From: an uncultured bacterium
GTDB lineage: Bacteria; Patescibacteriota; Minisyncoccia; Phycocordibacterales; GWA1-40-21
NCBI GenBank assembly: GCA_903868205.1
Contig: CAIPUJ010000062.1
Coordinates: 1-27,228 of the forward strand
Direction of reading: 5' to 3'
DNA: 27,228 nucleotides
Positions within the stretch are counted from its first letter, which is position 1. The number at the start of each line of letters is the position of its first letter. The notes beneath the pieces are model-generated. The model was not told where the DNA came from. It did not search any database and was given only the letters and a program-made list of their open reading frames with translations. Shown in pieces: positions 10,319 through 12,933 of this stretch. The position numbers were made by a program, and so were the translations under genes.

Positions 10319-10370
10319 TTGGTTGTAGCCAAAAGGCCTTGTAAACATGAGGTTTTCTGGCTATGACCAA
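10319..10370 (+). promoter_or_regulatory. Long imperfect hairpin in the 5' leader of the DGR target gene
   Basis: TTGGTTGTAGCCA...AAGGCCTT-gtaaacat-GAGGTTTT...TGGCTATGACCAA, with several G.U pairs. Confidence 0.6.
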
Positions 10371-10422
10371 CACAGACGTTGATCAAGCAAATGGTAAAAA
10401 CCTAAAGAGAGGAAAAAGTACC

Positions 10423-11058
10423 ATGAGCGAACAAAAACAAGTAGGACAGTTACATGCGGTAGTTTTGCAAAATCTACCCGAAATGACAATTGAGCAGAGA
10501 CAGAAATGGATCAATGACCCGAAAGGAATGCAAGAATTTCTTTCTGGTTTGGTCGGTTCTAAATTCTCAGAGCATGATGGTGGAATTTATTTCACTGTCA
10601 CCTCAAATGGCTTCTCGGGTAAGGACTGGATTAAGCACTTCAACAAGAAGGGCGTGGAGATCGGCAATTATGCGAAACAGCTCCTTTTGTCCGAAGACTT
10701 CAAGCCAAGCAAAAAGGGCACTACTTCGCAAATCGTTGTCATCAAGGGAGAATTTTTCTCTGACAACGATCGTATCACGTCAAAGATTCGGGAGGAAGCC
10801 GATCGTCGTAATATGACCAAGCCGAATGCTGAAGTAGCGTGCCTCATTCGTGACTTGTTCACGGATGACGAGATTAAAGCGATGGGTCTTTCTTGGATTG
10901 TGACAATGCACGAACCCATCAAAGATTCTGACGGCGATCCTCACTTGCTCAGCACGAATCGGAACGGCAACAAGTCTTGGCTCAGCACGTACTACGGCCC
11001 GCCTGACCGCAGGTGGCATCGTGGGAGCGGTTTCGCCTTTGTTGCTCCGCAAGTATAA
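10423..11058 (+). CDS. DGR target (variable) protein, 211 aa; C-terminal VR, probably a C-type lectin-like fold
   Basis: C-terminal 42 codons match TR; ends W...GFAF-like. ATG 10423 has GAGAGGA 8 nt upstream and is preferred over ATG 10363, which lies inside the leader hairpin. Confidence 0.9.
   Translation: MSEQKQVGQLHAVVLQNLPEMTIEQRQKWINDPKGMQEFLSGLVGSKFSEHDGGIYFTVTSNGFSGKDWIKHFNKKGVEIGNYAKQLLLSEDFKPSKKGTTSQIVVIKGEFFSDNDRITSKIREEADRRNMTKPNAEVACLIRDLFTDDEIKAMGLSWIVTMHEPIKDSDGDPHLLSTNRNGNKSWLSTYYGPPDRRWHRGSGFAFVAPQV
10926..11050 (+). repeat. DGR variable repeat (VR)
   Basis: 125 bp, 114/125 identical to TR. Differences at 10942, 10967, 10985, 10997, 10999, 11000, 11008, 11009, 11017, 11024, 11027, each opposite a TR adenine. 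Confidence 0.98.
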
Positions 11059-11120
11059 GTACTCGGAACTTTGCCCCTCGGACCTCTTGGATCCTTTGGA
11101 CTTTGTCCTTCCGAAATACC

Positions 11121-11169
11121 CAGTCCACTTACTCAAACCATTTGGTGAGAGTGAGTGGGCTGTTTTTTT
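11121..11169 (+). terminator. Terminator-like hairpin downstream of the target gene
   Basis: CAGTCCACTTACTC (11121-11134) pairs with GAGTGAGTGGGCTG (11149-11162) using two G.U pairs; T7 tract follows. Confidence 0.75.
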
Positions 11170-11407
11170 GTGTTAAAATAAAGTTGGTAGTAGGTAAATA
11201 TGTGAGCGATCAAGATTTCTCACTACCGAATCCAGTATCCATACATCGGGATTATTTAAGATTAAGATTTTAGATAGAGTGGTGTGTGAAGACAATTCAA
11301 CAAAAATGAAGATACTTGGTACAGAATATTATAGTATTTCAAATACTGCATCAGATACAACCCTGAGAGTGCTCAAGGGGTGGTGGTAAAGAAAGTATTT
11401 TGTACAT

Positions 11408-11532
11408 TTCTGACGGCGATCCTAACTTGCTCAGCACGAATCGGAACGACAACAAGTCTTGGCTCAACACGTACTACGACAAGCCTGACAACAGGTGGAA
11501 TCGTGAGAACGGTTTCGCCTTTGTTGCTCCGC
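11408..11532 (+). ncRNA. DGR template repeat (TR)
   Basis: Non-coding copy of VR with 32 adenines, rich in AAC/AAT codons in the VR frame; the last 23 nt are adenine-free and identical to VR. Confidence 0.97.
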
Positions 11533-11546
11533 TAATTTTTTCATTT

Positions 11547-11568
11547 CTCTCCTACTTTGGTAGGAGAG
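11547..11568. other. Perfect hairpin 14 nt downstream of TR (spacer-region hairpin candidate)
   Basis: CTCTCCTAC-tttg-GTAGGAGAG, 9-bp stem; overlaps the avd stop codon on the minus strand. Confidence 0.7.
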
Positions 11569-11958
11569 TTTTGTTTTTAATTTGGTTATGCCAGCCTCCT
11601 AGCATTTTACCTATTTCATATAGCTTTTCTGAGATTTCGGCATATTTTTTATTATCTATCGATTTTATTTCCCATGCTATTTGCATAAGAATTTTTGCTG
11701 TATCTAGTTTCATTATTGCTCTTTTTATAAAAGGTAGTTTTTCTTCTGGTTTTAAAAAGCTAGCTATACTTATGTTTTCTATGACTTCAATAAATAGTGT
11801 ATCTATTTTTCCACCAAGGGAATATTTTGTCGTCTTTGGGAAGAGCGTTAAATATTGTTGCCAGACTTTATATAGGGAAATAAACTTTGATAAAATTGGT
11901 AAAACTGTCGGGGGGGGGGGGTATTATTAGTTTTGTGACTAGAAAAATTTGTGTTCAT
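11552..11958 (-). CDS. avd: Avd-like accessory protein (four-helix bundle), frameshifted at the G12 tract; not in the ORF track
   Basis: Minus-strand frame 11911->11552 translates PTVLPILSKFISLYKVWQQYLTLFPKTTKYSLGGKID...KLDTAKILMQIAWE...EIGKMLGGWHNQIKNKTLLPK*, with the Avd-like FPK..KYSLG and EIGKMLGGW motifs. The nearest ATG (11958) is in frame only with 10 or 13 G. Confidence 0.85.
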
Positions 11959-12933
11959 AAATACGATGATATCATTTCTGTCGAAAATTTACTCCTTGCG
12001 TGGAAAGAATTTTTAGTGGGTAAAACTAAAAAGACAGATGTACAAGAGTTTCAACTGAGACTTTCAGATAATATTTTTGATTTACAATATGATTTGAAAA
12101 ACAAGGTGTATTCACATAGCAAGTATTTTGCTTTTAAGGTGAATGACCCAAAACCGAGGGATATACATAAAGCCAGTGTGAGAGATAGATTACTTCACCA
12201 TGCTATTTATAGGATTTTATATCCTTTTTTCAATAATACTTTTATCGCCGATTCTTTTTCTTGCAGATTAGGGAAAGGGACTCACAGAGCAGTAAAAAGA
12301 TTGAATTATTTTTACGGAAAAGTCTCTAAGAATAATACGAAACAGGTTTGGGCTTTGAAATGTGATATAAGAAAGTTTTTTGACTCTATCAATCACGAAA
12401 TACTTTTGAGTATTTTAGACTCGTATATTGAGGATAAAGAAATTATGGAACTTTTAAGGAAAATAATATCTAGTTTTTATAAAAAAGAAGTTGGATGTGG
12501 TTTACCACTGGGGAATCTCACTTCACAACTTTTCGTAAATATTTATATGAATGTTTTTGATCAGTTTGTTAAGCATAAAATAAGGGCGAAGTACTATATA
12601 AGATATTCAGATGATTTTATTATTTTGTCAGATAACAAGAAGTGGCTTGAGGGTATTTTAATAGAGATAAATAGATTTCTCTCGGATAGATTAAAGTTAT
12701 CTTTACATCCAAATAAGGTTTATATCAAGACATTTTCTTCTGGTGTAGATTTTTTGGGCTGGATTAACTTTGCAGATTTTAAAATATTGAGAAAGAGTAC
12801 AAAAAAGAGAATGTTTAGGGGCCTTTTAGAAAAAGGATTTAAAAAAGAATCTGTACAATCTTATCTTGGGCTTTTGAGCCACGGGAATGAATATAAGACA
12901 AGAAGTAAAATCACGTCTTCTCTCATAGAATAA
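11887..12933 (+). CDS. DGR-class reverse transcriptase
   Basis: KPRDI...RDRLLHHA, SCRLGKGTH, LKCDIRKFFDSI, GLPLGNLTSQLF (DGR-type LGxxxSQ), RYSDD catalytic motif, GVDFLG. Start is either TTG 11887 or GTG 11935. Confidence 0.95.
   Translation: MIKLVKLSGGGGIISFVTRKICVHKYDDIISVENLLLAWKEFLVGKTKKTDVQEFQLRLSDNIFDLQYDLKNKVYSHSKYFAFKVNDPKPRDIHKASVRDRLLHHAIYRILYPFFNNTFIADSFSCRLGKGTHRAVKRLNYFYGKVSKNNTKQVWALKCDIRKFFDSINHEILLSILDSYIEDKEIMELLRKIISSFYKKEVGCGLPLGNLTSQLFVNIYMNVFDQFVKHKIRAKYYIRYSDDFIILSDNKKWLEGILIEINRFLSDRLKLSLHPNKVYIKTFSSGVDFLGWINFADFKILRKSTKKRMFRGLLEKGFKKESVQSYLGLLSHGNEYKTRSKITSSLIE
11910..11921. repeat. G12 homopolymer inside the avd/RT head-to-head overlap
   Basis: 12 consecutive G in an otherwise AT-rich sequence. 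Confidence 0.9.

Follow-up and report, generated by a model that had tools for sequence, protein, structure and literature searches.

A CPR-type DGR with a reverse-strand avd gene whose assembled reading frame is broken at a G/C homopolymer

Layout of the locus

The window, by which we mean the whole 27,228-nt stretch of DNA that was analysed, contains an ordinary CPR-type DGR with the published order of target gene with VR, TR, avd on the reverse strand and RT (Table 1). RT, TR and VR are all intact. All 11 mismatches between TR and VR fall at TR adenines, as is the signature of DGRs, and the RT translation, in addition to its RVT_1 match, contains the sequences LGNLTSQ and YSDD, corresponding to the [LI]GxxxSQ and YxDD motifs that mark DGR RTs. 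The GTG at which the RT starts (11935) occupies the position homologous to the ATG starts of its relatives. Searches of Pfam and NCBIfam with the target gene (10363-11058) gave no match.

Table 1. Positions of the features of the DGR in the window and of a second DGR on another contig of the same genome
Feature	Position	Strand	Basis or remark
DGR target gene (231-aa ORF)	10363..11058	+	ORF listing; VR at 3' end
VR	10926-11050	+	3' end of target gene; repeat match to TR
TR, 125 nt, 32 adenines	11408..11532	+	91% identical to VR
9-bp stem with TTTG tetraloop (11547-11568) and T-run (11569-11578)	11547..11578	+	terminator-like match; 14 nt after TR; antisense to last avd codons
avd body, 123 codons + TAG (11552-11554)	11552..11923	-	profile, homologue and fold matches; no canonical start before 11713
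RT promoter-like site	11896..11927	+	-35 TTGGTA 11896-11901, 20-nt spacer (8 nt + G12), -10 TATTAT 11922-11927, 7 nt, GTG 11935
G12 (+) / C12 (-) homopolymer	11910..11921		joins avd leader to body; most of the 20-nt RT promoter-like spacer
avd leader, ATG 11958-11956 + 34 nt to C tract	11922..11958	-	other frame than body; overlaps RT codons 1-8 head to head
DGR RT, 332 aa from GTG 11935	11935..12933	+	RVT_1, E 1.8e-26
avd promoter-like extended -10, TG-n-TATCAT	11966..11974	-	inside RT codons D-D-I; 7 nt upstream of ATG 11958
Second DGR, contig C19 (L168)	VR 237-386 (target 3' end), avd-like ORF 465-887, TR 944-1093, RT 1127-2251	co-oriented	RT 35% identical to window RT

The arrangement TR-(avd)-RT, in which avd runs on the reverse strand, has been described as Architecture B3, which makes up 90% of the CPR DGRs in the set of Wu et al. 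2018 (Nucleic Acids Res 46:11, PMC5758913). The coordinates of the locus give the same core order with the same reverse-strand avd. An earlier note on this DNA had proposed the order target(+), TR(+), avd(-), RT(+), and the coordinates bear this out; the layout is not new, since it is that of Architecture B3 as given by Wu et al. The note had also called for a survey of this orientation, and among the related loci gathered from genomes and metagenomes RT and avd stand head to head in 140 of 143 unique cases.

Contigs from lake-water runs placed over 11417-11532 show that the VR is not the same in all samples: the allele of run X1 has 9 mismatches to the TR, and the expected 11 are found in the window VR and in runs X2-X4. 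Within one study, the dominant VR allele therefore varies from sample to sample, which suggests that the DGR was active recently and hence that Avd works somewhere in the population. Upstream of the TR, the sequence is conserved between the locus (11300-11407) and its closest relative (L001:4680-4760, minus strand), and a short hairpin (about 11361-11378) with a G-rich GGGGTGGTGG-like motif after it lies in this upstream sequence, which may be a 5' leader of the TR RNA.

Identity of the reverse-strand gene

The protein encoded by the minus-strand frame 11552-11923 is a complete Avd, which partners the DGR RT and folds as a four-helix bundle. A profile-HMM search for bAvd homology had been named beforehand as the check on the claim that an avd gene lies antisense between TR and RT, and it returned Pfam bAvd (PF22296) with E 3.4e-11 and 44 bits, above the cut-off of 40. 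The frame also matches NF033474 (DivGenRetAVD) at 63.6 bits (E 1.7e-17), which is under the equivalog cut-off of 80, with the alignment running from profile position 1 at residue 8 of the avd body. The 101 homologues, identical at up to 62% of positions, are mostly from Patescibacteria; in a 16-sequence alignment the avd body keeps 19 of the 19 invariant positions, and it has no internal stop. Its AlphaFold2 model (pLDDT 90) consists of helices 9-25, 30-55, 59-85 and 91-120, and is matched by Foldseek to Bordetella phage Avd (4DWL; TM 0.81/0.90, rmsd 1.5) as well as to Avd in the DGR RNP (8UB7; TM 0.8-0.9), 2GSC and 2RLD. PDB sequence searches with the Avd frame and with the 16-sequence profile retrieved no Avd entry, and the fold search alone found one. 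The frame is adjacent to the DGR RT (11935-12933) and to the TR (11408-11532). Profile matches, homologues and fold thus agree that an avd gene lies antisense between TR and RT.

The gene was also correctly said to be missing from the supplied ORF track. The ORF listing uses ATG, GTG and TTG as start codons, and avd escapes it because these starts yield just the last 53 codons, listed as a 53-aa ORF (11552-11713).

A frame break at the homopolymer

What does not hold is the earlier view of 11552-11958 as one avd gene. The interval measures 407 nt, which is no multiple of three, and the ATG at 11958 is offset by 2 from the Avd body across the C12 run, as assembled. Read along the minus strand, the frame of the Avd body has TAA at 11926-11924, then TAC and then the C tract, and as assembled it contains no ATG, GTG or TTG upstream of 11713. 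Leader (37 nt), run (12) and linker (7) add up to 56, whereas a sum of 54 (C10) or 57 (C13) would put the two parts in frame. Leader and body frames can therefore be joined solely by a change of the tract to C13, giving an intact 135-codon gene from ATG 11958 to 11552, or to C10, giving one of 134 codons. With either length the N-terminus would resemble that of the homologues, with Met, about 12 residues, Thr-Pro-Pro-Pro and Leu-Pro-Ile/Val-Leu, and the leader peptide likewise resembles homologue N-termini of the form M..N/LNF.H...TPPP. The 5' overlap with RT that had been proposed for avd (11935-11958) consequently stands for the leader ATG and not for the open Avd frame as assembled, because leader and body frames meet solely through a change in the length of C12. 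The tract is the sole G/C run of at least 8 bases in the window, and there are 11 such runs in the 743-kb genome (34% GC).

The tract length of 12 comes from one assembly, and the contigs of three lake runs stop at the tract: record 8 of X2 ends at 11917, record 3 of X1 starts at 11937 and record 12 of X3 starts at 11957. None of the Logan contigs of four lake-water runs over 11300-12300 bridges it. The contig of run X2, which is maybe the assembly's own source sample, reads the A4 run beside the tract as in the window, so that the uncertainty is confined to the tract itself; the A4/T4 run (11902-11905), considered as a frameshift site, was rejected on the reading of the same contig. An exact-protein look-up of the neighbouring ArgS and a search of metagenome contigs for the exact flank pattern with a variable gap gave no match, and a look-up of the RT of the closest homologue gave one contig only.

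Homopolymers of at least 10 bases are error-prone in short-read data. It is possible, if somewhat unlikely, that the run was miscounted in sequencing or assembly, and that the real tract has 13 (or 10) bases, so that avd is intact and nothing is off. Such a miscount would fit the absence of an independent contig across the tract, the homologue-like N-terminus read with C13, the Avd body that has kept all 19 invariant positions and no internal stop, and the VR differences between samples that suggest an active DGR. The opposite reading of the break, namely that avd is a fresh pseudogene and the DGR is dead, is very unlikely: decay would explain that the assembled frame has no usable start and that the promoter-like spacer of RT is 20 nt long, but not that a frame of 123 codons has stayed open in a genome of 34% GC with every invariant residue in place, nor that RT, TR and VR are intact and VR alleles vary between samples.

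Tract length and frame in related loci

Of 143 loci, 122 carry a C run of 6-14 bases at the 5' end of avd. In 61 of these 122 tract-bearing loci a canonical start lies in frame upstream of the run, so that half of the tract-bearing relatives in this sample are without one. Another 29 have a canonical start solely downstream of the run, mostly a TTG at the Leu of LPVL, and 32, the window included, have no canonical start in the Avd frame, their Avd bodies being open nonetheless. In the 29 relatives, translation of Avd could begin behind the tract at that TTG, so the frame need not matter everywhere.

Frame and tract length are coupled across species. Of 76 loci whose leader ATG occupies the homologous position, those with C9 are in frame in 15 of 21 cases, those with C10 are offset by +1 in 19 of 27, and those with C11 and C12 are offset by +2 in 5 of 9 and 3 of 3, respectively; +1 is the commonest out-of-frame state. 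As the offset tracks tract length, the loss of frame arises from the run itself and not from drift of the flanks. It was also considered whether the leader ATG has nothing to do with Avd, translation always starting behind the tract; this was rejected as a general rule, given that the offset follows tract length and that 32 loci have no start there. In the related loci L068, L084, L023 and L041, the C run in the avd 5' region is replaced by short tandem repeats of CCAG(C), AGCAATC or GA, which are another kind of slippage-prone sequence at the same spot.

These comparisons count against a miscount, as out-of-frame tracts are common over many independent assemblies and their offset follows their length. 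Moreover, independent assemblies with identical flanks agree on the length of the run, including an out-of-frame C10 that was found three times. Each of the four groups of loci with identical flanks has a single tract length, and no length polymorphism within a population was seen in this sample; one length per group argues against a run that is very unstable or randomly miscounted.

The many open Avd bodies without a start also bear on whether the 12-base allele is silent at all. Avd might still be made from it by recoding, either through slippage of RNA polymerase or through a tRNA-Pro frameshift on CCC-C, in which case the frame in the DNA would set no more than the yield. The 32 of 122 tract-bearing relatives that lack a canonical start in the Avd frame and yet have open bodies would be explained in this way, and every codon within the run is CCC in all frames. 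Efficient transcriptional slippage, however, is documented mainly for A/T runs. The commonest out-of-frame state, +1, is the direction in which tRNA-Pro is described to shift on CCC-C (PMC7577736, PMC4519876), whereas the window would need a shift of -1 or +2. Recoding at this locus is improbable.

Opposed promoter-like sites

On the RT strand, the tract fills most of the spacer of a promoter-like site; this and the other promoter and terminator calls are consensus matches. Five near-identical promoter-like sequences with a G tract on other contigs of the genome (tracts at C46:2047-2056, C98:8580-8589, C99:9483-9490, C103:1068-1076 and C103:2613-2622) read -35, 8 nt, G8-G10, one base, TATAAT, 7 nt and ATG, and a sixth (C101:7924-7931) is similar. 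The site before RT matches this geometry with TTGGTA, 8 nt, G12, TATTAT, 7 nt and GTG. The two G-tract promoters on C103 precede paralogous secreted proteins with an Lcl_C domain, which are candidate phase-variable surface proteins, and a third bAvd-like ORF (L167:1450-1809, 40.4 bits) lies between two of the G-tract promoters.

In the relatives, T, A and T are favoured at hexamer positions 1, 2 and 6 after the G run. A clear -10 following the tract was found in 35 loci, with an RT-frame start downstream in 33 of them and exactly 7 nt on in 21 of these 33, and the spacer lengths cluster at 17-19 nt. Only about 30% of the relatives have such a -10 immediately behind the run, so the reading of the tract as a promoter spacer leaves part of the family uncovered. 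In the genome as a whole, -10-like hexamers are most frequent at 6-9 nt before the first ATG of long ORFs (119 hits among 453 ORF starts versus a background of about 7 per offset), and SD-like motifs are rare. Leaderless mRNAs seem to be common in this organism, and a leaderless start is plausible for RT in view of the -10 peak and the rarity of SD-like motifs. RT seems to have a promoter of its own.

The earlier note had held that the avd promoter must lie inside RT. This is plausible, and a candidate extended -10 is indeed present at 11966-11974, 7 nt before the ATG at 11958. A TATNNT at the same offset is conserved in the relatives, and the gap of 7 nt is a common promoter-to-start spacing in the genome, so that a leaderless start is plausible for avd too. 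The avd ATG lies 23 nt inside RT (GTG 11935), and the promoter-like -10 of each gene is placed 7 nt upstream of its own start codon and inside the opposite gene. With presumed start sites 24 bp apart, interference between these face-to-face promoters would be a reasonable idea.

The stem-loop downstream of the TR

At its other end, avd runs through the hairpin that follows the TR, as had been claimed: its last codons cross 11547-11568 and its stop lies inside the 9-bp stem. Five of the nine pairs of this stem are G-C, and the stem is followed by TTTTGTTTTT, which gives it the form of a terminator. A hairpin with a T-run after the TR is found in 127 of 154 related loci and in 9 of 154 shuffled controls; the 89 canonical copies include 69 distinct stems, with covarying inner pairs, and in most loci the stem-loop overlaps the avd 3' end by 9-35 nt. 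Putative Avd-binding stem-loops just 3' of the TR have been reported by Handa et al. (bioRxiv 10.1101/2023.10.23.563531) in 207 of 278 Avd-bearing DGRs, those of CPR included, and are most often 9 bp long with tetraloops. The structure at 11547-11568 agrees with that description in its place just downstream of the TR, its stem of about 9 bp and its tetraloop, and it is a candidate for the Avd-binding stem-loop, the intrinsic terminator of the TR RNA, or both.

Conservation on the avd strand follows the same boundary. Over 161 avd genes, the choice of synonymous codons is free except at codons 117-121, which are the reverse complement of the 3' arm of the stem-loop and the U-run, and AAA CAA AAC is near-invariant on the avd strand, so that the U-run is conserved. 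Folding revealed no further conserved structure downstream of the stem-loop, with alignment folding of 31 loci giving the main stem-loop alone, and Rfam had no match over 10800-12200. With constraint confined to codons 117-121 and no structure found beyond, the functional RNA that overlaps avd seems to reach no further than the U-run.

This bears on the proposal that a transcript running from TR to RT is complementary to the avd mRNA over some 400 nt, with pairing or collision controlling Avd and RT. The strands are as that proposal describes them, and the RNA of the Bordetella phage DGR requires about 140 nt downstream of the TR, a stretch that here would be antisense to avd. Against it stand the conserved terminator-shaped stem-loop and U-run after the TR (127 of 154 loci), the promoter-like site of RT itself, the absence of extra synonymous constraint in avd beyond its last five codons and of conserved structure further downstream. 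With the U-run as the apparent limit of the functional RNA, and with what seems to be a separate promoter for RT, a sense/antisense duplex of 400 nt is not supported, and control by such a long co-transcript seems quite unlikely.

Proposed role of the tract

Taken together, we consider the locus to be, with fair probability, an ordinary CPR-type DGR of which this copy is caught in an off or low setting of a slippage-prone G/C tract. The C12 tract leaves avd out of frame with an RT spacer of 20 nt, and C10 would bring avd into frame with a spacer of 18 nt; it is on this account that the copy is read as off or low. An off length of the tract ranks as the likeliest explanation, followed by a miscount, and a lower probability is given to recoding, a long antisense co-transcript and decay.

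In this reading, the 3' end of avd, which is antisense to the conserved stem-loop and U-run, lies over what would close the TR RNA, the stem-loop sitting where the Avd-binding stem-loop sits in the Bordetella phage and having the shape of an intrinsic terminator. At their 5' ends, RT and avd meet head to head, each with its putative -10 inside the opposite gene and 7 nt before its own start. The tract between them links the leader ATG to the body on the avd strand, and on the RT strand it fills the spacer between the putative -35 and -10.

A bolder version of this idea, which we put forward tentatively and do not expect to be the likelier outcome, is that one G/C homopolymer sets the avd frame and the -35/-10 spacing of RT at once, that a single slippage moves both halves of the mutagenic complex together, and that the whole class of CPR DGRs would thus be a stochastically switchable mutator. 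In a shared switch of this kind, the loss of two bases would bring the 12-base copy to the length of 10, at which both genes would be 'on'.

As the layout is already published, its description in the earlier note matters little alone; the sole unusual feature at the locus is the homopolymer, and the proposed mechanism of antisense control is largely unsupported. For annotation, it is of use that avd of CPR is often missed or shortened by gene callers, since its leader is joined to its body by a homopolymer. If the length of the tract truly varies in cells, a second and simpler switch, itself mutational, would control mutagenesis by the DGR.

Comparison with known systems

The locus resembles Architecture B3 of Wu et al. 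2018 in order, in strands and in its CPR/Patescibacteria-like host, and the passages on B3 in that paper do not mention a head-to-head start-codon overlap, a G/C tract or frame breaks (PMC5758913). A description of the G/C tract was likewise not found in the DGR literature searched.

The DGR of BPP-1 (mtd-avd-TR-brt) has the same parts as the locus, the same Avd fold (TM 0.8-0.9) and adenine-specific differences between TR and VR, and its Avd-binding stem-loop, at Sp 3-33 directly after the TR, is at the place of the stem-loop described here. In contrast, avd of BPP-1 is co-oriented and upstream of the TR, with its 3' part within the DGR RNA, whereas avd at the locus is antisense and downstream of the TR, and the two Avd proteins share about 11-12% sequence identity. 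Folding and synonymous-site analysis of the locus and its relatives revealed no Sp-like conserved elements beyond the stem-loop. The genome itself holds a second DGR on contig C19 (L168:1-2309) that is co-oriented in a BPP-1-like order. Its TR and VR differ in 18 positions, 17 of them at TR adenines, and a second VR on contig C20 (231-379) has 21 of 22 mismatches at A. The second cassette contains no G/C run of at least 6 bases, and such a co-oriented, tract-free DGR in the same genome provides a natural contrast.

Face-to-face promoters that interfere with each other's transcription are known, for instance, from pR and pL of coliphage 186, which are convergent. At the locus, the promoter-like sites also face each other, with presumed starts 24 bp apart; here, the promoters are inferred from sequence, and the two products work together in one complex instead of being alternatives. 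The tract itself resembles the simple-sequence contingency loci, such as the tracts of Bordetella pertussis (PMC1891110) and the promoter and coding tracts of H. pylori sabA (PMC2715451). The G12 run at 11910-11921 is a long mononucleotide run both in a 5' coding region and in a promoter-like spacer, and it belongs to a family of G/C runs of 9-13 bases at the gene 5' end and between -35 and -10, in which the frame follows the length across relatives. It differs from those systems in that no length variation within a population was seen here, and in that a single tract would affect two opposed genes together.
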